Of a stretch of 59,503 nucleotides of DNA, positions 35,763 through 51,956 are shown piece by piece (position 1 is the first letter of the stretch; every line of letters begins with the position of its first letter). Source of the DNA: Lentisphaeria bacterium. Lineage in GTDB: Bacteria > Verrucomicrobiota > Lentisphaeria > JABSQK01. The notes under the pieces are model-generated. The model did no database searches and was not told the origin of the DNA. It saw only the letters and a list, made by a program, of their open reading frames with translations. Location: NCBI GenBank assembly GCA_013215875.1, contig JABSQK010000002.1, positions 1 to 59,503 of the forward strand, given 5' to 3'. The translations under genes and the position numbers were made by a program.

Positions 35763-36716
35763 TTAGAGTGGGTATCCATATTTCTCCAATGGTAGATCGA
35801 GATTATCTACCAACCAGCGATGACCGACTCGAGTTGCATCGGATACTTTCTTTTTCAGTTCTTCAGGCAATACTGCTTTCGCAGGTGGACTATTTGCGTT
35901 TTCTTTTAGAGCCTTTATTCGACTCCTGTTATCACTAAATGAGTTATGAGTTCGCTTCAAAAATGATGAATTAATTTCGCGCATGTGAGCAACTTGGGCT
36001 TCCGTTAATCGTGAATGAAAATGTTCGTTCTTAGCAAGTGAGACACCAATTTCAGAATCAATGCCAACGAATTCACAAATTGATTGGTAATATGCGTTTG
36101 AATCTTGGTGCAATTCCTCAAATAGAAAGACGCCAACATTTTCTCGGCCAAGCTGCTCAACAGAGCTTTGAATGCAGGCACTATAATCCATCAAGGGATC
36201 TCTCCTTCTCCTCATCCTGCCTCTGTACCATGTCTCAATATCTGCATAGCTTTTAGAGCCCATCCAGTGATGATTCTGCGAGATAAAATTTTCTCGCAGG
36301 TTTTGCAGATATTGAGAGGGTAGCCGAGTTATGGGGTTTCGTAAAGTGATCATGAGGCGGCATTGCCCAAAGATCGTTTTGATTCTACTAAGCATTTCCT
36401 TATGGACATCATTGGTTCTGTTGCCGAGGCCTTCGAAGGATGCCACAAGAATTTGCTCCTCAGAAACCATTGGCAATAGCTTTTCTTGATAGAGTGACAA
36501 TACCGCTTTTGTATCCAAAGGCTTCTTCAGTTTCCATAGGATTGGGTTAAGAATACTGTAGCTGAGATCGCTGCTACAGAGTTTTATGTCCATTGGACCG
36601 CCAGAGGACTTTCCCAAATAGTAAACTTGAGGATGTTTATCAAAAAGCGATAATTGAAGTGTTGTTGTGCCTGTTTTAGTCAAGCCAATATGCAGTAGCA
36701 GAGTTGGCTTGTTCAA
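35763..36716 (-). CDS. Sulfotransferase-family protein (left block, TTG start)
   Basis: 5'-PSB-like loop LHIGLTKTGTTTLQ, 3'-PB-like TLRNP...SQY, VFLFEEL, C-terminal LPLEKYGYPL. Confidence 0.85.
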   Translation of the reverse strand: MNKPTLLLHIGLTKTGTTTLQLSLFDKHPQVYYLGKSSGGPMDIKLCSSDLSYSILNPILWKLKKPLDTKAVLSLYQEKLLPMVSEEQILVASFEGLGNRTNDVHKEMLSRIKTIFGQCRLMITLRNPITRLPSQYLQNLRENFISQNHHWMGSKSYADIETWYRGRMRRRRDPLMDYSACIQSSVEQLGRENVGVFLFEELHQDSNAYYQSICEFVGIDSEIGVSLAKNEHFHSRLTEAQVAHMREINSSFLKRTHNSFSDNRSRIKALKENANSPPAKAVLPEELKKKVSDATRVGHRWLVDNLDLPLEKYGYPL

Positions 36717-36776
36717 TGCTTACCTGCACAAATAATCGTCACTCTAATATGCTTCAACTCATTTCTAAACGTATTT

Positions 36777-37721
36777 TTATAGTGGGTATCCATATTTCTC
36801 CAATGGTAGATTTAAGTTTTCAACTAGCCAGCGATGACCGACTCGAGTAGCATCAGAGACCTCACGAATGAGCTGATCATTTAATACTGCTTTTGCAGGC
36901 GGACCATCTGCCTTTGCATTGAATGCTTCTTCTCGGCTTTTTGAAGAATGAAAAAACTTTGTCCACGACGAATCGATTTCACGCATGTAAGCAAGCTGTG
37001 CTTCACTCAAACGTGTATTAAAATGCTTGCCTTGAGCCAGTGATACACCCATTTCAGAATCAATGCCCATGAACTCACAAATTGATTGGTAATATGTTGT
37101 TGGCTTGTCTTTTAGATCCTCGAAAAGGAAAACGCCTACATTCTCTCGACCCAGTTTTTCAATCGAGCTGCGGATACAATCGCAGCAATTCATCAGAGTA
37201 GACGAATCCAGTTTAGCCACTCCCGTGCTGTACCATGTTTCAATATCGACATAACTACGAGAACTGAGCCGCACTTTATTCTGCCGAATAAAATATCCAC
37301 CCAAATATTGCAAGTAGAGTGAAGGCAGTAGAGACAATGGATTTCGCAGGGTGATCATGATTCGACAGCCACCAAAGATCGCTTTGATCCTATCCAGCAT
37401 TTCTACATGCAGCTCCATATCCCGGGTGCCCAGGCCTTCCCAGGAACCGACAAGAACCCGCTCCTCAGAAATCGTTGGCAGTAACTTGTCTTGAAAGAGT
37501 GATAAAGTTGCTTCGGTATCCATTGGCGATTTCAATGCCCATAGAACCGGGTCTAGAATACTGTAGGTAAGGTCATCGATACAACCTTTCTTTGTGTCAT
37601 TATCCGTGACGATCTTTCCCAAATAGTGAACTTGAGGATGATTGAGAAAAAGTGTTCGTTGTAGCGTTGCTGTCCCTGTTTTTGGCAAACCAATGTGTAA
37701 TAGTAACGTTGTATTGCTCAT
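36777..37721 (-). CDS. Sulfotransferase-family protein (left block)
   Basis: LHIGLPKTGTATLQ, TLRNP, LPLEKYGYPL. Confidence 0.85.
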   Translation of the reverse strand: MSNTTLLLHIGLPKTGTATLQRTLFLNHPQVHYLGKIVTDNDTKKGCIDDLTYSILDPVLWALKSPMDTEATLSLFQDKLLPTISEERVLVGSWEGLGTRDMELHVEMLDRIKAIFGGCRIMITLRNPLSLLPSLYLQYLGGYFIRQNKVRLSSRSYVDIETWYSTGVAKLDSSTLMNCCDCIRSSIEKLGRENVGVFLFEDLKDKPTTYYQSICEFMGIDSEMGVSLAQGKHFNTRLSEAQLAYMREIDSSWTKFFHSSKSREEAFNAKADGPPAKAVLNDQLIREVSDATRVGHRWLVENLNLPLEKYGYPL

Positions 37722-37995
37722 AGAGAATCTCCAGAAATTGAATTGCTTTTCAATCCAACAAATTCTTTTCTCAGTGGGTTTGAAAATCGTTTCTTTCCAT
37801 TCATCTGAATTCTGCCATCATCAACTCTTTCTTGCACTGTTTTTATTCCTACATTTAGCATTAATACCTATTGTATCGCTCTTTTTTGATAAAATTTATG
37901 GCTGCTTTCTATCACAGCTTAATTATATAAAGGACTTCGCATTCTCCAAGCTGAGTTTCTCAATATAATAGAAAGTTCTCGATTGAACAGAAAAG
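37722..37995 (-). pseudogene. Decayed remnant of the 3' half of the lead sulfotransferase (49153-50157)
   Basis: Collinear patches: caatccaacaaattcttttctc...ttccattcatctga (about 37750-37808) vs caatccaatgatttcctttctc...ttccattcatctga (about 49209-49266); attctccaagc..ctcaat (37941) vs 49555; attgaaca (37982) vs 49652. Confidence 0.6.
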
Positions 37996-38132
37996 TGTGT
38001 ATTTAATGAAAATCAAACTACTACATTTGAACATTAAATAAAACGACTCTCTATAAATATAATGAATCATTCATAACTACGCGGATTGCAGTAATTAAGT
38101 AAAAACTCTCTTCCAGCGATATTCCTGGCGTG

Positions 38133-38243
38133 TTTTATTTGCATTGTAACTTTCATTCTAAAGATACGGGCGTAATACTATTTCATTATGATTATAAAAA
38201 TATTTTCAAAGGCTCCATATTCGAGTTGGCATTTTTATGCTCC
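38133..38243 (+). repeat. Direct repeat of the RNase Z upstream region and first 19 codons (partner 59153-59263)
   Basis: Ungapped manual alignment, 98/111 identical, offset 21,020 bp. Confidence 0.9.
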
Positions 38244-38313
38244 TGGGCTTACGCATACTGCTGACGAGCTGCTTTTTCAGGGTCTAGTCTTCAAAACGGA
38301 TTTCCTAATCTGA
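38188..38313 (+). CDS. 41-aa leader ORF derived from the RNase Z 5' end; its stop overlaps the start of the next gene
   Basis: MIIKIFSKAPYSSWHFYAPGLTHTADELLFQGLVFKTDFLI*, with a TGATG overlap at 38311-38315. Confidence 0.45.
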   Translation: MIIKIFSKAPYSSWHFYAPGLTHTADELLFQGLVFKTDFLI

Positions 38314-39314
38314 TGATAAAACAACCGTTCGATGTCGTCATCGTTTCTGATTTTTCTGGTCCGGCTTCACGCCGATTCGAAATAATGACACTTTTTTTTC
38401 TTGCCTCGTGGCTTGAGTTCGGCGGTGATTCCCGTGATTTACCACTGCATATTGCCTGTATTGGAGACCCACCGGAGAGTGTGCGCACGCTTGGAGAGCG
38501 CTGCTCTGCACGGTTCTCAACGCATACTCCCTTGCTCTTCGGAGGATTTGCAAACAAGCTGCGAGGGTTTGAGATTCAAAGGGAAACTGATCATATCCTT
38601 TTACTGGATTCGGATATGTTGATTCTGTCAGATATAAGCGGGCTTTCAACTGCTGTCGGAAGTGATTGTATCGCTGCTGCGACTGCCAACGGACTCGGGC
38701 TGAACTCAACAGCGCGCTGGAGAGACATACACGAGTCTTTGGGGCTCGCATACCCGGATGGTCATACAATTCCTTTGAGCCTCCAGCTGGATACATATGA
38801 ATGCGCCAATTACAGGGACTGCAAACTGAATGAATTAGCACCTTATTACAATGGAGGGATCATCTATGCGCCTTGGGAAAGCAGCTTAGGCGATGTTTGG
38901 CGAGACCATCTGATTCGAATTTCTGAGATCGACCCTAAGAGATCCAGCAATCAGCCATCACTCGCGACTGCAATACACGAACTGCAATTGAAGGGTATTA
39001 AGTTCCGTTTGCTTCCCGATGAATATCATGTGAGATGGCAACACATATCGACAGGAGCTGTCAGATCGCGAGATATAAAGTTACTTCATACAATCGGCTT
39101 TGGTGGCAGGGAATCGTCAGGCGATACTGCAAAACAAGATATTAAGAAGTATCGCCTCCATACATTGAAGCAAACATTTAAACTTAGGTCCCATCGCAGT
39201 CTTCGTGAACGTCTAGCCCACTACCTGGGAATGCATATTGAGGTTCGGGAGTGGTTTTGTATTTACGATACGCTGCAACTGTTGTATACAAGCTATGTTC
39301 GCGAGCTGGAATAA
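38313..39314 (+). CDS. GT-A fold glycosyltransferase (GT8-like), paralog 1
   Basis: ANKL...ILLLDSDML (DxD), YYNGG, SNQP, EYH. Close paralog of 40900-41889. Confidence 0.7.
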   Translation: MIKQPFDVVIVSDFSGPASRRFEIMTLFFLASWLEFGGDSRDLPLHIACIGDPPESVRTLGERCSARFSTHTPLLFGGFANKLRGFEIQRETDHILLLDSDMLILSDISGLSTAVGSDCIAAATANGLGLNSTARWRDIHESLGLAYPDGHTIPLSLQLDTYECANYRDCKLNELAPYYNGGIIYAPWESSLGDVWRDHLIRISEIDPKRSSNQPSLATAIHELQLKGIKFRLLPDEYHVRWQHISTGAVRSRDIKLLHTIGFGGRESSGDTAKQDIKKYRLHTLKQTFKLRSHRSLRERLAHYLGMHIEVREWFCIYDTLQLLYTSYVRELE

Positions 39315-39590
39315 CAGGGAATTTTTACGTTGATAAATAAATCCAAGTTTATGATTTTACCATTGGTATTTCTTGGTGGGGATTTATTCCAAATTTGCTT
39401 TGAAAATAAACGAGATGGTGTATGAAATCAATTATGGGTAAACCTTCAAGCAGACGCTTGCTAAAGGGCCTTAAAGAACTGATAATATGAGAGGGAAATT
39501 TCATGAATAAATTAGAGATCAGAAACATTTCCAAGGTAAAATCAGCCGTTTCTAAACGAGAATAGTCTCCATAATTAAAAGGGATATTCA

Positions 39591-40553
39591 ATGTCCATTA
39601 CCATCGTAACTATTGCACGAAACGAGCAACGGTATCTTGAAGAGTTTTTCATTTATTATAAGGAAATATTTGGCTGTGAACAGATTCTATTTTATGATGA
39701 CTCAGATGATGATGTGCAGAAAAATATTTGTTATCATTATCGCGATTATGTGACGCATATACCCTGGCTGGGTAAGGGCCAAAATGAATCTCATAATCAC
39801 GCACTCGAGATTTGTGAAACAGAATTTATCGGCTATTTTGATTTGGATGAATTTTTGGTATTAAAAAAACATGCCTGCATTGATAAATACCTTGAAGAAG
39901 TATTTATTAAAAACAGGGCAATCGTTTTTTTCAATTGGCGGATTTTTACTTCAATGGGTTATATTTATGAACCAGATGAATTGGTAACAACCGCTTACAC
40001 ACAATGTTTACCCCAAAGTGATCCCAGGTTCTATATTTCTGAAACAAATCCAAAATGGCGACCCAATTTTACGAAAAAATATATTGTAAAGGTCTCACGC
40101 TGTGAATGGGCTGGCACTCATAAAGCAACTGTAAACGGTGACGTTTTTGAGGCAAATGAAGGAATTAATTATGATGTGGTCCAATTAAATCATTATCATA
40201 GTAAGAGCCTTAAGTCTGTTATATATAAAGATTTACTTGGTATTGATTATACAAACAAGAACAGGCAACTAATCGTTGGAAATGGCCGGCGCGATACGCC
40301 TTTTTGGCGATTACTAACTTTAAAAGTCCTAAATAATGCAGAGCAAGTTAGAGATGATTTATTACTTAAATACCATGACCAAATTAACACTGCTAAACGA
40401 ATTCATTATACGGAGAAAATTGAGTTTATGGAGGATGTTGAAAGACCAGATTTTTCACAATATAATTTAACTGATGAAGAGCAGGAAATTTGTTACCGAT
40501 GTCTATGCCAAAAGCTCGTTGCGATCCCAGATCCTGAAAGTGAGCAAGATTAA
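39591..40553 (+). CDS. Glycosyltransferase, GT2/GT92-like
   Basis: TIARNEQRYLEEF, FYDDSDD, GYFDLDEFL, FNWRIF, QLNHYHSKS. Confidence 0.75.
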   Translation: MSITIVTIARNEQRYLEEFFIYYKEIFGCEQILFYDDSDDDVQKNICYHYRDYVTHIPWLGKGQNESHNHALEICETEFIGYFDLDEFLVLKKHACIDKYLEEVFIKNRAIVFFNWRIFTSMGYIYEPDELVTTAYTQCLPQSDPRFYISETNPKWRPNFTKKYIVKVSRCEWAGTHKATVNGDVFEANEGINYDVVQLNHYHSKSLKSVIYKDLLGIDYTNKNRQLIVGNGRRDTPFWRLLTLKVLNNAEQVRDDLLLKYHDQINTAKRIHYTEKIEFMEDVERPDFSQYNLTDEEQEICYRCLCQKLVAIPDPESEQD

Positions 40554-40899
40554 TCATAAAAGTCTGAATACGGCGGATCTTTAACGCTTCGATATTCATG
40601 TATAGTCCTTGCGCAGCAGGTAAAAAGAGCTTATTGTCTGCGCTTCACGTACCAGAGTCCAGGGATTAAGATATGTGTTTAATTTAAAGTCCATTCTCCA
40701 CAGTGACCTGTGGGTTCATGGGCACCAGCTCAGGTACCAAATTGAAATTCCACCCTAGTCTAGTGTGGAATAAGCATTGGATAATAATGTCTGCCAACCT
40801 TCGTATTTATGCAACAAAGGTGTTGAGGCTCACTGCTAGCAATAAAGCAGCGGGGCCGTATCCTCATGGCAAAATCTTAACACTGGTTTTCCCAATCTG

Positions 40900-41889
40900 A
40901 TGCAAACATTCGATGTCGTCGTAGTTTCTGATTTTTCTGGTCCGGCTGCACGCCGCTTCGAAATAATGACACTTTTTTTTCTTGCCTCGTGGCTCGAATT
41001 CGGCGGTAATACCCGTGAATTACCACTACATATTGTCTGTATTGGCGAGCCACCGGAGAGTGTGCTTACTCTTGGCGAACGCTGCGGTGCAAGATTCTCA
41101 ACGCATACTCCCCTGCTCTTTGGTGGATTTGCAAATAAGCTGAGAGGTTTCGAGGTTTCGAGGGAGACGGATCACATCCTCTTGCTCGATTCGGATATGC
41201 TAATCTTGTCAGATATCAGCGAGCTGCCAACTGCCCTTGGCAGCGATTGTATGGCGGCGGCAGCTGCCAACAGTCGGGGGCGGCAAATGCATTGGAGAGA
41301 AATCCACAAGTCCTTAGGGCTGACCTACCCGAAAGACAATCTAATTCCATTGAATCTCGAGCTGGATACATTTAAGTGCGCCAAGTATAGGGATTGCAAC
41401 CGAAATGAATTAGCACCTTATTACAATGGCGGGATCGTCTATGCACCTTGGGAAAGCAGACTGGGGGATGTATGGCGCGAGCATCTGATGCGGATTTCTG
41501 AGATCGACCCTGACTGTGTCAGTAACCAACCTTCACTGGCAACTGCAATTCATGAATTGCAGTTGGCGGGTGTTCAGTTTCGATTGCTCCCTGATGAATA
41601 TCATGGCAGATGGCAACACATATCGACAGGAACTGTTCCCTCGAGAGATATAAAACTTTTTCATACGATCCGCTTTGGTCGCAGACGTTCGCCAAGTGAT
41701 ACTGCTGAACAGGATATTAAGAATTATCGCATTTATACATTGAAGGAATTATGTAAGCTTAGGGCCCATCGCAGTCTTGCTGGACGTATGGCTCACTATA
41801 TGACAATGCATGTTGAAATTCGGGATTGGTTTCGTATTTTCAAATTAATGCAACTGCTGAATGATAAGTATGTTCACGAGCTGGAATAA
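40900..41889 (+). CDS. GT-A fold glycosyltransferase (GT8-like), paralog 2
   Basis: Same motifs as 38313-39314, with long identical stretches (RRFEIMTLFFLASWLEFGG, DHILLLDSDMLILSDIS). Confidence 0.7.
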   Translation: MQTFDVVVVSDFSGPAARRFEIMTLFFLASWLEFGGNTRELPLHIVCIGEPPESVLTLGERCGARFSTHTPLLFGGFANKLRGFEVSRETDHILLLDSDMLILSDISELPTALGSDCMAAAAANSRGRQMHWREIHKSLGLTYPKDNLIPLNLELDTFKCAKYRDCNRNELAPYYNGGIVYAPWESRLGDVWREHLMRISEIDPDCVSNQPSLATAIHELQLAGVQFRLLPDEYHGRWQHISTGTVPSRDIKLFHTIRFGRRRSPSDTAEQDIKNYRIYTLKELCKLRAHRSLAGRMAHYMTMHVEIRDWFRIFKLMQLLNDKYVHELE

Positions 41890-41963
41890 ATAAGATCGTA
41901 TCGAAGTCAGGCTTTACTGTATAAGCAATTGCTTGCAAAATTAAAAATATGGCCGCTCACAAA

Positions 41964-42917
41964 TCACAGTGGATAGCCATATTTCTCCAATGGTAACTTA
42001 AGATTATCTACTAACCAGCGATGACAGTCACGAGTTTCATCTGATACCTCATCTACAAGATTATTAGGCAAAACTATTTTTGCATTGGAACTGCTAAGCT
42101 GCGCTTCCAAAGCCATTTCCCGGCGCTTAAGTGAGTACAATGAGTGTAACTTTCGCTTTAAATAGGTCGATTGCGTTTTGCGAATGTAGGCAAGTTGTGC
42201 TTCACTTAAGCGTGGATTAAAATGCTTATCCTGAGTCAGCGATACACCAATGTTAGCATCAATACCCATGAACTGGCAAATTGATTGGTAATATGCGCTT
42301 GGGTTCTCTTGAAGATCCTCAAATAGGAAAATACCAACATTCTCTCGCCCAAGCTGCTTAATTGAACTTTGGATCCAATCGGTGTAACCCAACATAGGAT
42401 CTTTAACTCTCGCTGTTCTTATCTTGTACCATAGCTCAATATCTTCATAGCATTCGTGGTCCATCCAGTCTTGATTCTCCCAGAGAAAATGTTCGAATAA
42501 GTTTTGCATGTACAAGGAAGGCAGCCGGGATAAGGGATTTCGCAGGGTGACCAAGAGTCTACAGCTACCAAAGATTGCCTTACTCCTATTCAGTATTTCT
42601 CTATGATGCTCAATTGATCTGTTACCCAGGTTTTCCCAGGACCCAACTAGAACTTGATCCTCAGGAATCTTTGGCATTAACTTATCTTGAAAGAGTGATA
42701 ATGTAGCATCCATATCCATTGGCTCATCCAGATCCCACAAAACCGGGTTAAGAATTCTGTAAGTCAGATCATCCTGACATTTTCGAATGCTCATTCCCTT
42801 GTTTGCGAATTTTCCCAAATAGTAAATTTGTGGATGCTTGCGAAATAGTGCCTTTTGCAGCGTTGATGAGCCTGTTTTAGACAAACCAAGGTGCAGTAAT
42901 AAAGCTTTATTGTTCAT
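41964..42917 (-). CDS. Sulfotransferase-family protein (main array)
   Basis: LHLGLSKTGSSTLQ, TLRNP, LPLEKYGYPL. Confidence 0.85.
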   Translation of the reverse strand: MNNKALLLHLGLSKTGSSTLQKALFRKHPQIYYLGKFANKGMSIRKCQDDLTYRILNPVLWDLDEPMDMDATLSLFQDKLMPKIPEDQVLVGSWENLGNRSIEHHREILNRSKAIFGSCRLLVTLRNPLSRLPSLYMQNLFEHFLWENQDWMDHECYEDIELWYKIRTARVKDPMLGYTDWIQSSIKQLGRENVGIFLFEDLQENPSAYYQSICQFMGIDANIGVSLTQDKHFNPRLSEAQLAYIRKTQSTYLKRKLHSLYSLKRREMALEAQLSSSNAKIVLPNNLVDEVSDETRDCHRWLVDNLKLPLEKYGYPL

Positions 42918-43000
42918 CGATTACCTGTATTTAAATGAGTATATATAGTTTTACTTTATTATGCTTAAACTTATTCGCGAATCCATAGTCCAAATTATCT

Positions 43001-43952
43001 TCACAGTGGATATCCATATTTCTCCAATGGTAAGTTTAGATTCTCCACCAACCAGCGATGTCTATCGCGACTCGCATCGGACAGCTCTTTTATCAACTGC
43101 TCAGTTAGTTCTACTTTTGCGGAGGGGCCCAACCCGGGCTTCCAACGCTTTCCTTCGACGCTGAATTGAACTATATGAGTGCAGCGCTCTACCTAATAAT
43201 GATGATTGGATTTTGCGCATGTAAGAAAGTTGCGGGTCGCTCAATCGTGGATAAAGATGTTTGCCCAGAGCCAGTGATACGCCAATTTCGGAATCAATCC
43301 CTATAAACTCACAAATAGATTGGTAATATGCTTTTGGATTTTCTTGCAACTCCTCGTATAAAAAAACGCCAACATTTTCACGCCCTAACTCATTAATAGT
43401 GTTTTTGATACACTCACTATATTTCAATAAAGCATTATTAAACCTGGACATTCTATTCTTGTACCATACCTCAATCTCAGCATAGCTTTGTGGATCCAAC
43501 CAATTATGTTTTTGCCAAAGAAAATCTTCGTGCAGATTTTGCAAGTACAAGGAAGGCATCAGGAATAAGGGATTTCTCAGGGTGATCATGATTCGACAGC
43601 CACCAAAGATCGCTTTACACCTATTCAGTGTTTCCATTTGCCTCTTTATGGGTCGGCAGCCAAGGCTTTCCCAGGAACCAACAAAAACTTGATCCTTAGA
43701 AATTGTTGGTAATAAGGTATCTTGAAAGAGGGATAAAGTCTCTTTCGTATCCATTGGCTTTTTCACGTCCCATAAAATAGGTTTAAGAATTCTATAGGTG
43801 ATATCATCGAGACAATTTTTCTTTATCTTCTTGTGCTTGACGGCCTTTCCCAAATAATGAATCTGAGGATGTCTGAGAAAAAGAGTCTCCTGAAGTGTTG
43901 TTGACGCTGTTTTTTGTAAGCCTATATGCAGATGCAAAGGTGTATTGTTCAT
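43001..43952 (-). pseudogene. Frameshifted sulfotransferase (main array); translated ORF ends at 43101
   Basis: The family C-terminus GPSAKVELTEQLIKELSDASRDRHRWLVENLNLPLEKYGYPL* lies in another frame ending at TGA 43001. The span is 952 bp versus 954 bp for its neighbours, i.e. a 2-nt deletion near 43128-43130. Confidence 0.85.
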
Positions 43953-44015
43953 CGAGATTCACCATTATTTATTATGACGTATGGTTCTCTAGAACTGAGA
44001 GAGCCAAAGGACTCT

Positions 44016-44969
44016 TTAAAGTGGGTAACCATGCGTCTCCAGGGGAAGATCGAGCTTCTCTACTAACCAGCGATGTCCATCACGACTCGCATCGGACACC
44101 TCTTTTATCAACTGCTCTGTTAGTACTACTTTTGCGGGAGGACCGCCAAGCAGTGCTTCCATCCTTTTCCTTCTACGCTCAAGGGAACTATATGAGTGCA
44201 GCATGCGTCCTAAAAGTGACGATTTCGTTTTACGCATATATGCAAGTTGGGCTTCGCTTAGTCGAGGGTTAGAATGTATGTCTTGGGTAAGTGAAACACC
44301 CATTTCGGGATCAATCCCCATGAACTCACAAATCGATTGGTAATAAGCGTTTGGGTTTTCCTGTAAATCTTCGAATAAGAAAATACCAACATTCTCTCGT
44401 CCAAGCTGCTCAATCGAGCTGCGGATACACTCAGAGTAATTGAGCAACGGATTCTTACTTATCATTTCACACTTTCTGTACCATCCCTCAATATCTTCAT
44501 AAGTTTCGGAGTCCATCCACCCATTATTTTGCCGCAGAAAATTTCCACGTAAGTTTTGTAGATATAAAGAAGGAAGTTGAATCAAGGGGTTTCGCAAGGT
44601 GATCATGATTCGACAAGCACCAAATATAGCTTTCGTTCTAGTGAGCATTTCCAGATGGTTCTCTGTCGTTTTGTGACCAAGGTTTTCCCAGGACCCCATG
44701 AGAACTCGGTCCTTAGGAACCAGAGGCAATAACGATTCATGAAAGAGTGACAATGTCGCTTCTGTATCCATTGGTTTATCCAGGTCCCACAGAACCGGAT
44801 TAAGAACTCTGTAGCTTATATCATCAAGACAAGCTTTTTGTATATGTTCATTACCGATTACTTTTCCTAAATAATGGACTTGAGGGTGTTTGAGAAAAAG
44901 TGTCTCTTGAAGTGATGTTGAGCCTGTTTTTTCCAAGCCAGTGTGTAAAAGCAACGTTGTATTATTCAT
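44016..44969 (-). CDS. Sulfotransferase-family protein (main array)
   Basis: LHTGLEKTGSTSLQ, TLRNP, LPLETHGYPL. Confidence 0.85.
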   Translation of the reverse strand: MNNTTLLLHTGLEKTGSTSLQETLFLKHPQVHYLGKVIGNEHIQKACLDDISYRVLNPVLWDLDKPMDTEATLSLFHESLLPLVPKDRVLMGSWENLGHKTTENHLEMLTRTKAIFGACRIMITLRNPLIQLPSLYLQNLRGNFLRQNNGWMDSETYEDIEGWYRKCEMISKNPLLNYSECIRSSIEQLGRENVGIFLFEDLQENPNAYYQSICEFMGIDPEMGVSLTQDIHSNPRLSEAQLAYMRKTKSSLLGRMLHSYSSLERRRKRMEALLGGPPAKVVLTEQLIKEVSDASRDGHRWLVEKLDLPLETHGYPL

Positions 44970-45047
44970 CGATTACCCACACAATAATTAAGTATAGCTG
45001 ACACTCGTGTACTTCGATTGAGAAACGAATGCACCTTTTGGAATTCT

Positions 45048-45995
45048 TTAGAGTGGATAGCCATATCTCTCCAATGGTAGATTAAGGTTCTCTACCAACC
45101 AGCGATGGCCCTCACGACTTGCATCGGATACTTTTTGTATGATATGATCAGTTAAAATTACTTTTGCAGGGGGGCCGCTTTTTTTAGCTCTCAAGGCATT
45201 TTTTCGGCTTTTGACCGAACGAAATGAATTAAGGCTTCGCTTGAAAAAAGAGGATTGAATACTATGCATGTATGTAAGTTGCTCTTCGCTCATTCGTGGA
45301 TTAACATGTTTATTTTGAGTCAATGATACCCCAATTTCGGAATCAATGCCCATGAACTCACAAATTGATTTGTAATAAGCATTTGGGTCTTCTTTTAGTT
45401 CCTCAAATAAAAAAATGCCAACATTCTCTCGCCCAAGTTGCTCTATTGAGCTTTGAATAAAATCGACGTAAGTAAATAATTTTTCATTTGACATTCGCTT
45501 GCTGAACCATGTCTCAATATCTACATAGTCATGCGAGTCAAAAATCCCCTTTTTCTGCTTCATAAAATTACCGTACAAATTTTGCAAATATAAGGAAGGC
45601 AGCCGTGATAAGGGATTTCGCAGGGTGATCATGATTCTGCAGCCACCAAAAATAGCTTGGGTTCTATTCAGCATTTCTATTTGCGCCTTTATTGCTTGGC
45701 TACCAAGGCCTTCCCAGGACCCAACAAGAATCTGATCTTCCGATACGGATGGTAATAACTTATCATGAAAAAGTGCTAAAGTCGCTTCTGTATTCATTGG
45801 TTCATCTAAATTCCACAGAATCGGATCCAGAATTCTGTAGGTAATTTCATCGAGGCACGATTTTTGTTTACTGTCATTTCCTTTAATTTTTCCTAAATAG
45901 TGGACTTGAGGATGCTTGTAAAGAAGTGTCTCTTGAAGTGTACTAGAACCTGTTTTTTCCAAGCCAACATGCAGTAGCAAAGGAGTCTCTTTCAT
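45048..45995 (-). CDS. Sulfotransferase-family protein (main array)
   Basis: LHVGLEKTGSSTLQ, TLRNP, LPLERYGYPL. Confidence 0.85.
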   Translation of the reverse strand: MKETPLLLHVGLEKTGSSTLQETLLYKHPQVHYLGKIKGNDSKQKSCLDEITYRILDPILWNLDEPMNTEATLALFHDKLLPSVSEDQILVGSWEGLGSQAIKAQIEMLNRTQAIFGGCRIMITLRNPLSRLPSLYLQNLYGNFMKQKKGIFDSHDYVDIETWFSKRMSNEKLFTYVDFIQSSIEQLGRENVGIFLFEELKEDPNAYYKSICEFMGIDSEIGVSLTQNKHVNPRMSEEQLTYMHSIQSSFFKRSLNSFRSVKSRKNALRAKKSGPPAKVILTDHIIQKVSDASREGHRWLVENLNLPLERYGYPL

Positions 45996-46058
45996 CGAGA
46001 CCCACCATTGTTTGACAAGGCGAATTGTTCACTATCACTAAGTGAGACAAGTGCTCTT

Positions 46059-47015
46059 TTAAACTGGATAACCATATTTCTCCAACGGTAGACCGAGGGT
46101 CTCTGCTAACCAGCGATGGCCATCACGACTTGTTTCGGACACCTCTTGTATCAGATGATCAGTTAAAGTTGCTTTTGCAGGGGGGCCGTTTTTTTTGTCT
46201 CTTAAGGACCTTCTTCGACTTTTATTTGTGCGCAGTGCATTCTTGCTTCGCCTTAGAAGCGACGATTGAATAGTGCGCATATAAGCAAGTTGCTCTTCAC
46301 TCAATCGTGGATTAACATGTTTGTCTTGAGCCAATGATATGCCAATTTCTGAATCAATACCCATGAATTCACAAACTGATTTGTAATAAGCTTTTGGGTT
46401 TTCTTGCAGTTCCTCAAATAGGAAAAGACCAACATTCTCTCGTCCAAGCAGCTCGATTGATCTTTGGATGCAGTAGGAATAACTCAGCAAAGGAGTCGTT
46501 GTCCTCCTCATCCTCTTTTTGTACCATATCTCAATATCTGCATAGCTTTGATATCCCATCCAGTCATTATTTTGCCAGACAAAATCTTCACGCAGGTTTT
46601 GCAGGTATAAGGAAGGCAACAGATCTAGGGGATTCCGCAGGGTGATCATGATTCGACAGTCACCAAAAATTGCCTTGCTCCGATTCAGCATTTCTATATG
46701 ATCTTTAACCGTTTTGTAAGCAAGATCTTCCCAGGACCCTACAAGAACTCGATTCTCAGAAACTGTAGGTAATAGCTCATCTTGAAAGAGAGATAAAGTC
46801 GCTTCTGTATTCATTGGATTGTTTAGGTCCCACAGAATTGGTTCCAGAATTTTGTAGGTCGTATCATCGAGACAATCTTCCTTTGTATTGTTTTTAACGC
46901 CGACAATCTTACCCAAATAGTGAACTTGTGGGTGTTTGAGAAAAAGCGCCCTTTGGAGTGTAGCTGTCCCTGTTTTAGCCAAGCCAAGGTGCAGTAGTAA
47001 AGTTGATTTATTCAT
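46059..47015 (-). CDS. Sulfotransferase-family protein (main array)
   Basis: LHLGLAKTGTATLQ, TLRNP, LPLEKYGYPV. Confidence 0.85.
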   Translation of the reverse strand: MNKSTLLLHLGLAKTGTATLQRALFLKHPQVHYLGKIVGVKNNTKEDCLDDTTYKILEPILWDLNNPMNTEATLSLFQDELLPTVSENRVLVGSWEDLAYKTVKDHIEMLNRSKAIFGDCRIMITLRNPLDLLPSLYLQNLREDFVWQNNDWMGYQSYADIEIWYKKRMRRTTTPLLSYSYCIQRSIELLGRENVGLFLFEELQENPKAYYKSVCEFMGIDSEIGISLAQDKHVNPRLSEEQLAYMRTIQSSLLRRSKNALRTNKSRRRSLRDKKNGPPAKATLTDHLIQEVSETSRDGHRWLAETLGLPLEKYGYPV

Positions 47016-47096
47016 CGATGACCTGCACAGTAAATAGTGCGTGTGTTTAATCTATTATGTTTCGCTTGATAAGCGCAAGCATTTTCAAACCTGTCT

Positions 47097-48050
47097 TTAA
47101 AGTGGATATCCATATTTCTCCAATGGTAAATCAAGCTTCTCCACTAACCAGCGATGGCCTTCACGAGATGCATTGGACACTTCTTTTATCAAATGGTCCG
47201 GTAAGACTGCTTTCGCCGATGATCCCCCCGCTCTTGCACTGAAACCCTTTCTTCGGCTCTTACGCGAGAGAAGTGCATTAAGACCTCTCTTAAAAAACGA
47301 GGAATGAATTTCGTGCATGTAAGTAACCTGCATTTCACTCAACCTTATATTAAAATGTTCGTCCTGGGTAAGTGATGCACCAATATCAGAATCAATACCC
47401 ATAAACTTGCAAATTGATTGATAATACGCTTTTGGGTTTTCTTTTAGTTCCTCAAATAGAAAAACGCCAACATTCTCTCGTCCAAGCTGCTCAATAGATT
47501 TGCGGATGCAGTCAGAATAATTAAGTAAAGAACTATTTTTTTCTGCTAAGCGCATCTTGTACCATGTCTCAATATCGATATTACTTCGATACCTCATTCT
47601 TATTTTCTGACGCCCGAGGAAATTTCCCTGCAAGTTTTGCAAGTAGAGTGACGGTATCTGAAATATGGGATTTCGCAGGGTAATCATGATTCGACAGCCT
47701 CCAAATATAGACTGAGTCCTATTCAACATTTCATGATGATGTTTAATACCTTGGCTGGCCAGACTTTCCCAGGACCCCACGAGAACCTGATCTTCAGAAA
47801 TCAATGGTAATAAGGTCTCATTCAAGAGTGATAAAGTTGATTCTGTATTCATTGGCTTCTCCAGATCCCACAATATCGATTTAAGAAGTCTATAGGTTTT
47901 ATCATCTACACACCCTCTTTTTATTGAATTGTTAACTTCGACCTTTCCTAAATAGTGAACTTGTGGATGATTGAAAAATAATGCGCGTTGCAGTGTTCTC
48001 GAACCTGTTTTTTGTAAGCCAATGTGCAGTAGCAAGCTTTTATTGCTCAT
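47097..48050 (-). CDS. Sulfotransferase-family protein (main array); start moved to ATG 48050
   Basis: MSNKSLLLHIGLQKTGSRTLQ. Starting at 48050 gives 317 aa like the paralogs. Confidence 0.85.
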   Translation of the reverse strand: MSNKSLLLHIGLQKTGSRTLQRALFFNHPQVHYLGKVEVNNSIKRGCVDDKTYRLLKSILWDLEKPMNTESTLSLLNETLLPLISEDQVLVGSWESLASQGIKHHHEMLNRTQSIFGGCRIMITLRNPIFQIPSLYLQNLQGNFLGRQKIRMRYRSNIDIETWYKMRLAEKNSSLLNYSDCIRKSIEQLGRENVGVFLFEELKENPKAYYQSICKFMGIDSDIGASLTQDEHFNIRLSEMQVTYMHEIHSSFFKRGLNALLSRKSRRKGFSARAGGSSAKAVLPDHLIKEVSNASREGHRWLVEKLDLPLEKYGYPL

Positions 48051-48199
48051 TTTTCTGATCCATTTTTTCCTTTTCAAGCTGGAGCCCCATTAGCACTACT
48101 AGATAATCTGTATATGATTTTATATCAAAACGACGGTACACCTAAATAGTCTCCAAGCGGAATAGTTCAACGTAGACATTGGGTGAGTCAAGTAGGACT

Positions 48200-49156
48200 T
48201 CAGAGTGGATATCCATATTTCTCCAATGGTAGCTTGAGGTTCTCTACTAACCAGCGATGGCCATCACGACAGGTATCGGAAACCTCTTGAACCAGACGCT
48301 CTGTCAGAACTACTTTTGCTGGGGGCCCGCTTTTTTTGGCTCTTAAAGCCTTTCTCCGACTCTTACAAACGCTAAATGAGTTACGAGTTCGTTTCAAAAA
48401 CGACGATTGAACTTCCCGCATATAAACAAGTTGGTCTTCACTCATTCTTGGATGAAGATGTTCGTCCTTAGCAAGTGATACGCCAATTTTGGAATCAATA
48501 TCCATGAACTCACATACAGATTGGTAATAGTCATTTGGGTTTTCGTGCAATTCCTCGAATAAGAAAATACCAACATTCTCTCGCCCAAGCTCTTTAATCG
48601 AGCTCTGAATACAGTCGATGTAATCCAGTAAAGGATTTTGGGTCCTTGCGATCCTCTTTCGGTACCATATCTCAATGTCGGCATAGCTTTTTGAGCTCAT
48701 CCAGTAATTATTTTGTTCGATAAAATCTTCACGCAAGTTTTGCAAGTATAAAGAAGGCAATAAAGATATTGGATTACGCAATGCAATCATGATACGACAG
48801 CCGCCAAAGATTGCCTTGCACCTGTTGAGCATTTCAATATGATCTTCAACTGTTCTATGACCAAGGTCTTCCCAGGATCCTACAATAACCTGACCCTCAG
48901 AAACTGATGGTAATAAGGACTCATTAAAAAGAGATAATGTGCTTTCTGTTTTCATAGGCTTTCCCAGATTCCACAGAATCGGATTAAGGACTTTGTAGCT
49001 TACATCATCGAGACATTTTCTTTTTGTTTTATTAGCGCTTCCAACTACCTTTCCCAAATAATGCACTTGGGGGTGTTTGAGAAAAATCGTTTCTTGAAGT
49101 GTTGATGTGGCAGTTTTAGCCAAGCCAATATGGAGCAGTAAAGGTGTTTCTTTCAT
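48200..49156 (-). CDS. Sulfotransferase-family protein (first of main array)
   Basis: LHIGLAKTATSTLQ, ALRNP; ATGA overlap with the upstream gene. Confidence 0.85.
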   Translation of the reverse strand: MKETPLLLHIGLAKTATSTLQETIFLKHPQVHYLGKVVGSANKTKRKCLDDVSYKVLNPILWNLGKPMKTESTLSLFNESLLPSVSEGQVIVGSWEDLGHRTVEDHIEMLNRCKAIFGGCRIMIALRNPISLLPSLYLQNLREDFIEQNNYWMSSKSYADIEIWYRKRIARTQNPLLDYIDCIQSSIKELGRENVGIFLFEELHENPNDYYQSVCEFMDIDSKIGVSLAKDEHLHPRMSEDQLVYMREVQSSFLKRTRNSFSVCKSRRKALRAKKSGPPAKVVLTERLVQEVSDTCRDGHRWLVENLKLPLEKYGYPL

Positions 49157-50157
49157 TGGATCTCTCTAAAATAACCATGCTTTTTTAGCTGAAGATTAAA
49201 CACCTCTTCAATCCAATGATTTCCTTTCTCGGTAGCCGTAAAAATTTTGTTTTTCCATTCATCTGACATGGGTGCTTTGGCCTTTGGGCTATCAATCATT
49301 GAGGCATTGTTGCCTTTCATGGATAGCATTTTTTTACGATTGCGCTTGTTCGCAAACCTGTATTTCAGTGATTTTATGTTGGACGTTTGAATGTTTTTTA
49401 AAGCATTGATTTGTGCCTCAGTCCATCGGCTATTGTCAACTTTTTCATCCATTAGTTTTATCCCCTCATCAGCATTGATGCTCATAGTATCGCAAATGCT
49501 CTGATAAAATTGTATTTTGTCTTCAACTAAATCTTCGAATAGAAACACCTTTATATTCTCCAAGCCAAATTGCTCAATGTAGGCTTGAAGTGTCACGGCA
49601 TATTCCAAGTGAGGTTGAATTTCTGTATATTCTGTTTCAAGCCATGCATCAATTGAACAATAGAATGGCGGGCGGCCGATTTTGTAATTCATTCCAGTAT
49701 TCTCTCTTATTAAATATTGGAAATAAGCGGATTCTAAAAGTGATATGGGGTTTCTTAATGTCATAATGATCGTTGCTTCACCAAAGAGCTGCTTCAAGTT
49801 CCGAGCCCGTATGCGTCTTTTAGCCAATGAATCTGTCGAATATGATTCCCATGACCATACAGGAAGCAGGTTCTTCTCCCTGGCTGGAGCGAGTAGCTCC
49901 TGCAGAAGTTCCTTGCATTCAGCATAATCCGGATTGAATATATCCTCATAAGCAATTTGATTCATTATTTTTTGCACCAGTTCGTTACGGCCATTCTCAA
50001 ACTTCTGATACTCCTTAAAGAGATGGCCGTCATAGCGGCCAAGATAAAAAATTTCACTATGGCAGGCAAAAAGCCGCCATTGCAATGTTTTGGTTGCTGT
50101 TTTTGGCAGGCCGATATGAATGATAGGAATTCGGGCAGTGTCTATAACCTTACTCAC
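49153..50157 (-). CDS. Divergent lead sulfotransferase-family protein
   Basis: IHIGLPKTATKTLQ, WSWE, TLRNP..LLESAY, VFLFEDL, KHGYF; GTGA overlap with the ABC gene stop. Confidence 0.85.
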   Translation of the reverse strand: MSKVIDTARIPIIHIGLPKTATKTLQWRLFACHSEIFYLGRYDGHLFKEYQKFENGRNELVQKIMNQIAYEDIFNPDYAECKELLQELLAPAREKNLLPVWSWESYSTDSLAKRRIRARNLKQLFGEATIIMTLRNPISLLESAYFQYLIRENTGMNYKIGRPPFYCSIDAWLETEYTEIQPHLEYAVTLQAYIEQFGLENIKVFLFEDLVEDKIQFYQSICDTMSINADEGIKLMDEKVDNSRWTEAQINALKNIQTSNIKSLKYRFANKRNRKKMLSMKGNNASMIDSPKAKAPMSDEWKNKIFTATEKGNHWIEEVFNLQLKKHGYFREIQ

Positions 50158-51956
50158 TTACTATAATCTTTATTTTGCTGTTCGAACATTGAACTATAAT
50201 AGCCTTCCATTAAAATTAAGTCATCATGCGTACCGTCTTCCACTATAATTCCCTCATCTATGACCAGAATTCTATCTGCTTTTCTAATCGTTGATAACTT
50301 ATGAGAGACAAAAATAACTGTTCGATCACTAGCGAAACACTTAATCGCATGAAACATTGTTTTCTCTGCCTCTGCATCCAAACTGGCGGTTGGTTCATCA
50401 AGGATCAATATGGAATCTTTTCTCGCTAATGCTCTGGTAATTGCTAATAGCTGCCATTGCCCGGTAGAGATGGTAACCTCACCATATAATCGACCTAAAT
50501 GTGTATCCATACCGCTGGGAAGGTCTTTTACAAAACCGATAATTCCAGTCTCATCTGCTAGTTTTTGAACTTTAACCGGGTCGTCTTTTAGTTTATGCCA
50601 GTCGCCAAATGCAATATTTTCCTGGACCGTAGCCTCAAATTGCACTGGGCGCTGAAAACACAAGGCGATATGATCATGTAGCCACCTTAAGGAAAGATCT
50701 TTTATATTATTTCCATCTATGTGAATTGTACCGTTGTCTGCTTCATAGAGACGCGCAATTAGCTTGATTAATGTTGTCTTACCGGCTCCATTTCTTCCAA
50801 CAATTGCAACCTTTTGTCCCGCCGGAATTTCGAGAGAAAGCTTATCGATTACAGGATGCAGGGATCCTGGGTAAGAAAATTCCAGATCTTTAAATGAAAT
50901 ATTGCCATTCAACGACTCTGGACATAAGCCCCCTTCATCAGAAATTTTCGGTTCCTCACTAAGAAACTCAAGAAGTGGAATGATTCGTAACGCTGATTCT
51001 GCACCCGAAGCTAACGATTTTGAAATCTGTGTATTGCTTTTTAAAGCACGGAAGGATGCCAGAAGAAATGCAACAATAACAGCTGCTTCAAGCATCCCAT
51101 TCTCAAACTTGTTTGCCAACCAGCTGATTACAGAAAGTAAAATAAGCAGGTAGAAAATAATCGCAGCTGTAAGTTTCAGAGTAATTGTTATTAATATTTT
51201 TTGTTTTTCCTGAATGATTTCGCGAGCAGTTGTCTCAAAGCGCCCTATCATCTCAGCTGCCAAATTCAATAACTTTGTAGACGTTACACTTGCAGAGCCA
51301 GTCAATAATGATGTATAATACCCACTCAGACGTTTACCCTCGGTTCTTTTTACGTCGATATTAAATTTCTGAAGAGAACTCAAACAACGTATTATTATGA
51401 GTGGCAGACCAGCGAGGAATAAATAGAATGCCATCAACGGACTCAGATAAAACATCAGACTAAAAAGCGAGCCTAATTGAATAAGTCCACCAGCACAAGA
51501 GAGCGCGCATTGAATGGGGCCAAATGCGCTCTTTCCTCCTGCAGCACGAAAGAGCAGATTTAGTGACTCCTTCGTCTCAAAAAAAACGAGGTCCATTCGT
51601 GAGGTTTGTTTAAATAATACTTTCTGAAGCAAAAAAGCTGTTTCTTCAGCAAGTCGAGTTCGACTAAATGCACGGATTTCTTTCAAAATAAGTTCCAGGG
51701 CCAGTAGTGCTATGGCAATCCCCATCAATAGGGGAAGAGGCTGGTCGCTAAATGGAATTTTAGTTGTGGACTTAAATTTAGCTACAATTATCCCAATTGT
51801 AGCCGTAAAGGCGACAGGGATTAACGCTTCCAGTAAAAAACACGTAATAACCGAAGCTAAGAGCTTGCCCGATGCCTGCCGTGTAATGGTGTAGGACCAA
51901 ACCACTGCTTTACGCAAATCTTTTAAAAGTGCTTTATTTATCTTAACAACAGACAT
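50154..51956 (-). CDS. ABC exporter, fused TMD-NBD (MsbA/MdlB-like)
   Basis: Multi-TM N-terminus, Walker A GRNGAGKTT, signature ISTGQWQ, Walker B ILILDEPT, H-loop VSHK. Confidence 0.92.
   Translation of the reverse strand: MSVVKINKALLKDLRKAVVWSYTITRQASGKLLASVITCFLLEALIPVAFTATIGIIVAKFKSTTKIPFSDQPLPLLMGIAIALLALELILKEIRAFSRTRLAEETAFLLQKVLFKQTSRMDLVFFETKESLNLLFRAAGGKSAFGPIQCALSCAGGLIQLGSLFSLMFYLSPLMAFYLFLAGLPLIIIRCLSSLQKFNIDVKRTEGKRLSGYYTSLLTGSASVTSTKLLNLAAEMIGRFETTAREIIQEKQKILITITLKLTAAIIFYLLILLSVISWLANKFENGMLEAAVIVAFLLASFRALKSNTQISKSLASGAESALRIIPLLEFLSEEPKISDEGGLCPESLNGNISFKDLEFSYPGSLHPVIDKLSLEIPAGQKVAIVGRNGAGKTTLIKLIARLYEADNGTIHIDGNNIKDLSLRWLHDHIALCFQRPVQFEATVQENIAFGDWHKLKDDPVKVQKLADETGIIGFVKDLPSGMDTHLGRLYGEVTISTGQWQLLAITRALARKDSILILDEPTASLDAEAEKTMFHAIKCFASDRTVIFVSHKLSTIRKADRILVIDEGIIVEDGTHDDLILMEGYYSSMFEQQNKDYSK

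Follow-up and report, generated by a model that had tools for sequence, protein, structure and literature searches.

A ten-gene sulfotransferase array headed by an ABC half-transporter gene in a Lentisphaeria bacterium: a candidate system for multi-site glycan sulfation

Introduction

Few sulfated glycans have been characterised in bacteria outside the cyanobacteria, and very few bacterial polysaccharide sulfotransferases (STs) have a known substrate, according to the accessible text of three reports (PMC8205485, PMC7356697, PMC11641403). In the synechan (xss) cluster of Synechocystis PCC 6803, two STs from distinct subfamilies accompany a Wzx/Wzy/PCP system, and glycosyltransferases are combined with STs of the type that uses 3'-phosphoadenosine 5'-phosphosulfate (PAPS), which act on a lipid-linked repeat unit prior to export (PMC8205485). 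The capsule region of Vibrio sp. KMM 8419 contains three STs scattered across 80 genes, together with an ATP-binding cassette (ABC) transporter and PAPS genes (PMC11641403), and in Pontiella sulfatireligans F21 a putative cluster for a sulfated, glycosaminoglycan-like glycan holds one ST among GT2/GT4 genes (PMC7356697). The accessible part of the synechan report also mentions "abundant sulfotransferases" for Trichodesmium (PMC8205485). Here we describe a locus of a Lentisphaeria bacterium in which ten ST genes of a single family accompany the gene of an ABC half-transporter. The stretch analysed, hereafter the window, is the entire 59,503-bp contig C112 (JABSQK010000002.1) of an assembly of 5.49 Mb in 876 contigs (92.7% complete, 5.1% contaminated).

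Like the xss cluster, the window locus combines glycosyltransferases with PAPS-type STs. In contrast to xss, it holds ten STs of one family, nine of them from one clade, and a half-ABC exporter, with no Wzx or Wzy gene in the window. It shares with the Vibrio and Pontiella loci a marine bacterial host and the placement of ST genes within a polysaccharide cluster, whereas neither of those loci, as far as their accessible descriptions extend, carries a tandem array of ST paralogs. That is to say, ST-bearing bacterial glycan loci are known, and a ten-member array in one locus goes beyond the one to three STs of the characterised loci in the parts of the reports compared here. The account that we favour, with moderate confidence, is one of cytoplasmic, PAPS-dependent sulfation of a lipid-linked glycan at multiple sites, followed by ABC-dependent export. 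The nearest conceptual parallel would be the vertebrate heparan-sulfate 3-O-sulfotransferases (3-OSTs), a family of seven isoforms that are paralogs with a common core and write different sulfate positions on one glycan; the resemblance would be one of logic and fold, not of membership.

Organisation of the array

A preliminary description of this DNA reported nine ST paralogs of ~317 amino acids, in blocks of two and seven, and one divergent lead gene, all on the minus strand. Open reading frame (ORF) listing and alignment confirm this arrangement, with the amendment that one of the nine copies is frameshifted, leaving eight intact. From 51956 down to 41964, the minus strand encodes the ABC half-transporter (50154-51956, 600 amino acids), the lead ST (49153-50157, 334 amino acids; PF13469 41.5 bits, cut-off 27) and seven paralogs of 315-318 amino acids. 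These are ST_i (48200-49156, 318 amino acids, placed by alignment; PF00685 29.4 bits, cut-off 22), ST_h (47097-48050, 317 amino acids; PF00685 26.2 bits), ST_g (46059-47015, 318 amino acids; PF00685 37.5 and PF13469 32.2 bits), ST_f (45048-45995, 315 amino acids; PF00685 31.6 bits), ST_e (44016-44969, 317 amino acids; PF00685 26.9 bits), the frameshifted ST_d (43001-43952) and ST_c (41964-42917, 317 amino acids; PF00685 23.4 bits). Two further minus-strand paralogs, ST_b (36777-37721, 314 amino acids; PF13469 32.0 bits) and ST_a (35763-36716, 317 amino acids from a TTG start; PF13469 29.3 and PF00685 26.1 bits), lie beyond a 4.2-kb gap that carries three plus-strand glycosyltransferase-like genes. 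For ST_h, a TTG at 48077 would yield 326 amino acids, and the ATG at 48050 matches the other copies in the alignment. Pairwise identity among the nine paralogs is 53-69%, with ST_i the closest paralog of ST_g (69%), and the lead ST is 33% identical to ST_a and about 33% identical to the paralogs generally.

Inspection of the gene junctions reveals 4-base overlaps at the head of the unit, where the ABC stop and the lead start share GTGA and the lead stop and the ST_i start share ATGA, both as first described. This is the pattern expected of translational coupling. The remaining spacers, previously put at about 60-150 bp, measure 60, 63, 63, 78, 81 and 149 bp, and the ST_c-ST_d spacer is ~83 bp when the frameshifted tail of ST_d is included. 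In most copies, the ~15 bases 5' of the start codon are similar (GGT-A/G-ATC-TCG-ATG), so the duplicated unit took in the spacer.

The +1 frameshift of ST_d stems from an extra base near 43125, within a GGGCCCC (G3C4) run 42 codons before the end of the gene. The called ORF (43101-43952) encodes 283 amino acids, and the last 42 codons, including the LPLEKYGYPL tail, are intact in another frame and reach a stop at 43001-43003. The site is spanned by one contig alone (run X1) at a depth of about 5; the frameshift is either a very recent lesion or a low-depth sequencing error.

The ten-gene array itself is real. Contigs of four public runs from one study match it with 0 differences and span the junctions a/b, c/d, d/e, f/g, g/h, i/lead and lead/ABC, and the paralogs have no long exact repeats in common; the array is therefore not an assembly artefact. 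The public runs containing the array stretch are labelled marine sediment metagenome, and a fifth run (marine metagenome) shares 8% of words. No further copy of the family occurs elsewhere in the assembly.

Cofactor motifs, variable segments and predicted fold

The ten genes almost certainly encode sulfotransferases. In window and six-frame genome searches, all ten exceed the curated cut-off of PF00685 (22) or PF13469 (27), with margins of 1-15 bits; no NCBIfam model names them. Alignment shows H9, G11, L12, K14 and T15 (HxGLxKT) and R126-N127-P128 to be invariant in 10/10, as are S93, E95, S134 and Y136, and the C-terminal LPLEKYGYPL is near-invariant among the paralogs, so that the three conserved motifs read initially from the sequence all hold. 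Enzymes of the sulfotransferase superfamily carry a 5'-phosphosulfate-binding loop (K-T/S-G-T) and a 3'-phosphate-binding R...S motif, and both are present in all ten proteins as K14/T15 and R126-N127-P128/S134. The loop follows the pattern GLxKT(G/A)(T/S) with K14 and T15 invariant. Across 99 rows of the wider family, H9, G11, K14, T15, S93, E95, R126, P128, S134 and Y136 are 94-99% conserved, and we take these columns to represent the 5'-phosphosulfate loop, the catalytic-base region and the 3'-phosphate motif.

None of the ten sulfotransferases contains a transmembrane (TM)-like or hydrophobic segment, and the PAPS loop begins within the first 15 residues, so the enzymes are predicted to be soluble and cytoplasmic. 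The genome encodes an adenosine 5'-phosphosulfate (APS)-kinase domain on contig C246, within a 624-codon frame, and PAPS can therefore be made. Approximately ten further sulfotransferase-domain genes lie on other contigs, for about 20 in the genome overall.

In contrast to the conserved core, four segments differ strongly among the nine paralogs. Residues 36-49 (after YLGK) show 4.4 residue types per column, residues 95-104 show 3.8, residues 140-175 (after YLQ) show 3.7 and residues 249-290 (the basic helix) show 3.3, versus 1.7-2.4 in the remaining columns. The preliminary description had singled out the first, third and fourth of these, and the measured variability bears it out. The copies may plausibly have become specialised in acceptor binding.

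A PDB profile search with the ten proteins returned one convincing solved-structure match, the Alicyclobacillus acidocaldarius sulfotransferase 3rnl (E 2e-11, positions 110-222). The AlphaFold2 (AF2) model of ST_a (pLDDT 77.7, pTM 0.76, low-confidence stretches at 150-155 and 234-278) retrieved 78 chains at E<=1e-3 with Foldseek, where every row listed is a sulfotransferase fold, and 143 chains at Z>=8 with VIA-align. Pfam, profile, Foldseek and VIA-align therefore agree on a sulfotransferase fold with PAPS-type motifs, as first proposed. The VIA-align ranking is led by 3rnl (Z 17.3), the heparan-sulfate 3-OSTs (Z 15.6-16.9) and the NDST sulfotransferase domain (Z 14.1-15.0), followed by the olefin-synthase/CurM sulfotransferase domains (Z 11.9-12.7), tyrosylprotein sulfotransferases (TPSTs; Z 11.4), mycobacterial STF9 and glycopeptide STs (Z 10.6-11.4) and cytosolic SULTs (Z 10-11).

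While 3rnl is the best match in both sequence and structure, it is only 19% identical, and its entry title names no substrate, which makes it uninformative on the function of the array STs. The closest solved folds after it, 3-OST and NDST, are PAPS-dependent carbohydrate STs that align over about 235 residues. Their identity to the array STs is nonetheless 14-18%, and no 3-OST or NDST chain appeared at E<=1 in the PDB profile search, such that the resemblance is structural only. The animal enzymes are also Golgi-lumenal type II membrane proteins that act on a finished polymer, in contrast to the cytoplasmic, membrane segment-free enzymes predicted here. The structural ranking, obtained with a predicted model, is a lead towards a carbohydrate acceptor and not proof of one. 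Taking fold and locus together, we consider a glycan the probable acceptor of these sulfotransferases.

Expansion and selection within the family

The sulfotransferase family of the array is modest in size and uncharacterised. Searched exhaustively with a profile, 1.84 billion representatives yielded 6,591 proteins at E<=1e-3, of which 261 reach E<=1e-30. A 99-row tree was built from the 10 window proteins, 9 proteins from three relatives (G002, G010 and G012) and the genome of the gammaproteobacterium TMED1, and 80 database proteins (290-400 aa), with shorter, longer and window-identical rows excluded. Inspection of this tree reveals a division of the family into two clades (split 100*). The nine paralogs form a single group (SH-aLRT, an approximate likelihood-ratio test, 90; 91/87 in a careful 27-row tree) with short, poorly resolved internal branching, and the tandem amplification that had been proposed for them is upheld by this one lineage clade. 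The lead sulfotransferase groups instead with the tandem copies of G002, G010 and G012 in the second major clade.

For all 36 paralog pairs, the frameshifted copy included, the ratio of nonsynonymous to synonymous substitution (dN/dS) lies between 0.15 and 0.35 at a dS of 0.80-1.77. These values, from pairwise and sliding-window Nei-Gojobori estimates that are weak at dS near 1, indicate divergence under purifying selection rather than decay, and not the neutral ratios that would speak against a functional set. Together, the single clade and the low ratios argue that the nine copies are an old, lineage-specific expansion retained by purifying selection.

Occurrence in other genomes

Copy number was then compared among genomes by searches confined to the array's own ST family, one among all sulfotransferase families. 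At E<=1e-10, four of 41 genomes (the source genome and 40 relatives) contain matches: the source genome with 10 genes (11 matches, two of them from ST_d), G002 with 4, G010 with 2 and G012 with 2. At E<=1e-30, two of 401 genomes of the same phylum match, namely the source genome and G010. In a set of 400 genomes drawn from the class to which the gammaproteobacterium TMED1 belongs, two carry one copy each, with one more genome not scored; the 401- and 400-genome searches scored up to five candidates per genome. Arrays may also occur in the organisms that encode the closest outside homologs (P0005, P0006, P0007, P0014 and P0015). Scans with a narrow peptide pattern gave 1 locus from 12 pattern matches in a genome collection and 3 loci from 195 pattern matches in metagenomes, low counts that say little with so narrow a pattern. 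Two of the metagenome loci bear 1 and 2 copies. Among the papers listed by full-text literature searches, none was seen to describe a tandem set of ST genes of this size in a bacterial glycan locus, and supplementary tables may name sulfotransferase-rich genomes. With 1-4 copies in relatives and 1-3 STs in the characterised loci, as far as their reports are accessible, so many sulfotransferase genes in one bacterial locus are rare, as the preliminary description had supposed.

The relatives nevertheless offer an informative comparison for gene order. In G002, a cluster on one strand comprises a Sulfotransfer_1-GT4 fusion, an ABC gene, three STs, a leaderless sulfatase and a further ST. The ABC gene heading this cluster, which also matches PF00664, is the best G002 match of the window ABC (33% identity over the full length, E 8.8e-94; others 1e-57 or weaker). 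Sulfotransfer_1 is fused to GT4 next to family genes in both G002 and G010, and in the metagenomic database protein P0079 a GT4 domain precedes a domain of the array's own ST family. An ABC-plus-ST module and a tie to glycosyltransferases therefore recur, at the level of gene order and domain fusion, outside the source genome.

Three additional metagenomic homologs (P0111, P0117 and P0135) resemble ST-ST didomains, in which a divergent N-terminal sulfotransferase-like domain is joined to a domain of the array's family. In G012, an FHA-domain protein and a 1438-aa Big_13 (Ig-like) protein are encoded upstream of the ST pair (L010, G012:C40, 587-9253), a context unlike that of the window.

Glycan-synthesis context and proposed pathway

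The ABC protein matches PF00005 (108.7 bits) at residues 371-524 and contains about six hydrophobic stretches between amino acids 28 and 306 (8 partly overlapping segments). It is thus predicted to be a full-length (type IV fold) exporter half-transporter with an N-terminal membrane domain and one ATPase domain. Comparison with NCBIfam models gives 282.7 bits for MsbA over residues 53-596 (cut-off 602), 238.2 bits for HepA (cut-off 725) and 141.4 bits for PglK (cut-off 1000), all below cut-off, making it a protein of the broad full-length exporter class but of no named equivalog. MsbA is also the best half-transporter (single-chain) structure (E 1e-59, residues 80-594), and the two-half proteins ABCB1/ABCB4 outscore it at E about 1e-110.

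Divergent from the ABC gene, the plus strand encodes an FkbM-family methyltransferase (52368-53204; TIGR01444 88.2 bits), a GT-C (PMT_2/ArnT-like) membrane glycosyltransferase (53417-55000; PF13231 34.6 bits; 11 TM-like segments that overlap in part and amount to about 7 distinct hydrophobic stretches), a priming polyprenyl-phosphate glycosylphosphotransferase of the WbaP/PglC type (54997-56403; PF02397 197.9 and PF13727 64.4 bits) and a GT4 glycosyltransferase (56416-57510; PF00534 100.8 bits), with a second GT4 glycosyltransferase on the minus strand (57507-58910; PF00534 75.2 bits). Three further candidates occupy the gap between the ST blocks on the plus strand. A GT2_4/GT92-like glycosyltransferase (39591-40553; PF13704 36.6 and PF01697 27.4 bits, both over cut-off) is flanked by two GT-A-fold (GT8/GT24-like) candidates at 38313-39314 and 40900-41889 that are 75% identical to one another. 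The product of 38313-39314 has no Pfam or NCBIfam match. Its AF2 model (pLDDT 93.6) retrieves with Foldseek the UGGT catalytic domain, XXYLT1, LARGE1, WbbM, LgtC and glycogenin as top structures (E 7e-10 to 1e-6 for all of these except WbbM), and D99 and D101 of the DxD motif are invariant in 27 sequences of the family. The pair is accordingly assigned by model to the GT-A fold with a DxD motif, and to no family at the sequence level. The pair has 135 homologs, a number of which bear the label Gammaproteobacteria or Arenicella; in two of the homologs, P0223 and P0256, a fusion to Sulfotransfer_3 is present. A glycan-biosynthesis context for the array is thereby established by the priming transferase, two GT4 enzymes, two GT8-like enzymes, the GT92/GT2-like enzyme, GT-C and FkbM, and the locus would link both the array's ST subfamily and the Pfam-less GT8-like family to sulfated-glycan synthesis.

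The gene set is also reminiscent of PglK/Wzk-type flippases, which like the window ABC are single-polypeptide half-transporters found beside priming phosphoglycosyltransferase (PGT), GT4 and GT-C genes, and we presume the locus to be analogous to the PglK/Wzk pathway for flipping lipid-linked oligosaccharides. The PglK score of 141 bits against a cut-off of 1000 sets the two apart, and the MsbA and HepA models score higher yet under their cut-offs.

In the pathway that we propose, the WbaP/PglC-type transferase would prime a glycan on polyprenyl phosphate at the cytoplasmic membrane face, and the GT4, GT8-like and GT92/GT2-like enzymes would lengthen it. Ten soluble, cytoplasmic, PAPS-dependent carbohydrate sulfotransferases would then decorate the glycan at many positions. 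The nine paralogs, products of tandem duplication in this lineage, combine an identical cofactor and catalytic core with four differing surface segments, so that each most likely has its own hydroxyl or sugar context to sulfate, which would give a densely, multiply sulfated product. As PAPS is cytoplasmic, sulfation must precede export, and the MsbA/PglK-type half-transporter would flip or export the sulfated lipid-linked glycan over the inner membrane. Outside the cytoplasm, the GT-C enzyme may transfer or further modify the glycan, and a leaderless sulfatase encoded at 32377-34395 might trim sulfate esters or recycle them. Our inferences in this scheme are the glycan acceptor, the separate specificities, the sequence of events and what the ABC, GT-C and sulfatase proteins do. 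The product is probably an unusually heavily sulfated surface or secreted glycan.

The affinity of the transporter for MsbA, a lipid A flippase that provides its top bacterial NCBIfam model and half-transporter structure, raises the alternative of an acceptor that is anchored in lipid or is a small molecule destined for export. In this case the product would be, for example, a sulfated glycolipid, a lipo-oligosaccharide or lipopolysaccharide (LPS) core, or a glycosylated natural product, sulfated as by NodH- or mycobacterial Stf-type enzymes and exported by the MsbA-like protein. The fold matches include mycobacterial STF9 and glycopeptide STs (Z 10.6-11.4), and a ceramidase-like gene lies nearby (25.2 bits, under its cut-off of 32.1). 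We regard this alternative as unlikely. The window has no polyketide synthase (PKS), nonribosomal peptide synthetase (NRPS) or lipid-synthesis gene, whereas the locus does have a polyprenyl-phosphate priming transferase and at least 5 glycosyltransferases. Ten STs call for numerous acceptor positions, more in keeping with an oligo- or polysaccharide, and the domain fusions tie the ST family to glycosyltransferases.

A second alternative is that the STs modify protein, with the giant RTX-repeat proteins encoded in the window or their O-glycans as acceptors, GT-C as a protein glycosyltransferase and a sulfated glycoprotein or adhesin as the product. The giant RTX/DUF4347 ORFs share the strand of the array at a distance of 8 kb, PF13231 covers GT-C enzymes that resemble protein O-mannosyltransferases, and TPSTs are found among the fold matches (Z 11.4). 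The set of PGT, GT4, half-ABC and GT-C also resembles en-bloc protein glycosylation pathways. Four unrelated genes (VWA, ceramidase-like, sulfatase and DUF5672) nonetheless separate the giant genes from the array, the TPST matches fall 5-6 Z units under those of the heparan-sulfate enzymes, and no RTX gene occurs among the scanned neighbours of the relatives' ST clusters, although G012 has the Big_13 (Ig-like) protein immediately upstream of its pair. It would also be unusual for a secreted protein to be sulfated directly while still in the cytoplasm, and we consider a protein acceptor quite unlikely. A protein-borne sulfated glycan would still suit the lipid-linked glycan pathway until its last step.

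Evidence weighing against multi-site glycan sulfation

Several observations weigh against the multi-site sulfation of an exported glycan. On the side of the locus, the two-ST block is parted from the operon by opposite-strand genes and therefore cannot share a transcript with the seven-ST block. Among window ORFs of 120 aa or more there is no Wzx, Wzy, Wza, Wzc or Wzm/Wzt gene, and the contig breaks off at 59503, still within the locus, leaving the export route incomplete. The ABC protein scores under the MsbA, HepA and PglK equivalog cut-offs, such that its substrate is unreadable from sequence. Closeness to the heparan-sulfate enzymes, as modelled, indicates fold and not substrate. The sulfatases that adjoin ST-family members in three genomes are only 20-30% identical mutually and the genome has 36 sulfatase matches, so the adjacency of sulfatase and ST may be due to chance.

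Four remaining points bear on the array as a set of distinct enzymes. One of the nine copies is frameshifted. Dissection of the alignment into 15-codon windows gives a maximum dN/dS of 0.55, with two windows saturated and no sign of positive selection. The four variable segments vary family-wide too (top-residue frequency 0.30-0.36) and may be simply weakly constrained loops, and no RNA run among the public runs contains the stretch. All four would also fit a redundant array, in which dosage amplification or decay of the family has left copies with the same or no function and unconstrained variable loops. This we judge to be very unlikely, given that 8 of the 9 copies are intact after divergence to a dS of 0.8-1.8 and that purifying ratios extend to all 36 pairs, including those with the frameshifted copy. 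Dosage amplifications are normally near-identical, in contrast to the 53-69% identity observed here, and the ten proteins retain every one of the invariant motif residues from H9 to Y136 listed above.

A stronger version of multi-site sulfation can be proposed only tentatively, and we think it may well not hold. Here the locus would be a bacterial counterpart of the heparan-sulfate "sulfation code", in which nine regiospecific cytoplasmic STs born of a lineage-specific burst, the older lead ST and an editing cytoplasmic sulfatase write up to 10 distinct sulfate positions on a lipid-linked oligosaccharide, which the ABC flippase then exports to yield a hypersulfated, heparin-like surface glycan. 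If true, this would be the largest sulfotransferase set among the bacterial loci compared, within the accessible text of their reports.

Significance

Ten soluble STs in a single operon-like array would provide a ready panel for the effects of loop changes on regiospecificity. Lacking a membrane anchor, the enzymes may express more easily than those of the Golgi, and they could be used to make sulfated oligosaccharides of defined structure enzymatically, heparin-like materials among them. The locus also points to marine-sediment bacteria as producers, and not degraders alone, of heavily sulfated polymers, which bears on the source of the sulfated organic matter eaten by sulfatase-rich bacteria.

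Other features of the window

Scans for regulatory elements gave no signal either way, with 44 promoter-like sites versus 52.1 +/- 7.8 in shuffles and 14 terminator-like sites versus 13.2 +/- 4.4, and Rfam has no family match in the window. The 8 inverted-repeat pairs found are all short and imperfect (16-34 nt, 71-94% complementarity) and no tandem repeats occur in 27000-59503. These scans gave no indication of phase variation through a switch of the invertible or slipped-strand kind, although the ST_d frameshift does sit in its short G3C4 run.

The far side of the window is dominated by two giant minus-strand RTX-repeat ORFs, one of >5301 aa that runs off the contig start (2-15904) and one of 3792 aa with a DUF4347 domain (15926-27304). 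Both contain RTX calcium-binding repeats and probably represent very large, adhesin-like proteins that are secreted; genes for type I secretion are not seen adjoining them. They are followed on the plus strand by a 1014-aa BatA-like protein that combines two VWA domains with one GATase1-like domain (27866-30910) and by the 454-aa ceramidase-like protein (30998-32362; 25.2 bits against the neutral ceramidase cut-off of 32.1). No tie is seen between the array and the giant RTX, VWA and ceramidase-like genes. A DUF5672 protein (34836-35744, plus strand; PF18922 78.7 bits) is encoded adjacent to ST_a.

The sulfatase at 32377-34395 (minus strand, 672 aa) is of the Cys type (PF00884 132 bits, CAPTR motif). 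Its N-terminus begins directly in the sulfatase core, with no leader and no hydrophobic segment, and it is a possible editing or recycling partner of the STs. A search for a second copy of the locus found a close paralog for this sulfatase (79% identity, C334 33929-35971 of the source genome, G000) and for the ceramidase-like gene (63%, C875), and for no others. Leaderless CxPxR sulfatases adjoin ST-family genes in three unrelated genomes (also L008 8764-10119 and L001 10701-14588), and that of G002 sits inside the ABC-ST operon. A specific ST-associated sulfatase clade was considered and rejected, the neighbouring sulfatases being 20-30% identical. With its 36 sulfatase-domain matches and about 20 sulfotransferase-domain genes, the organism appears able both to remove and to add sulfate esters.

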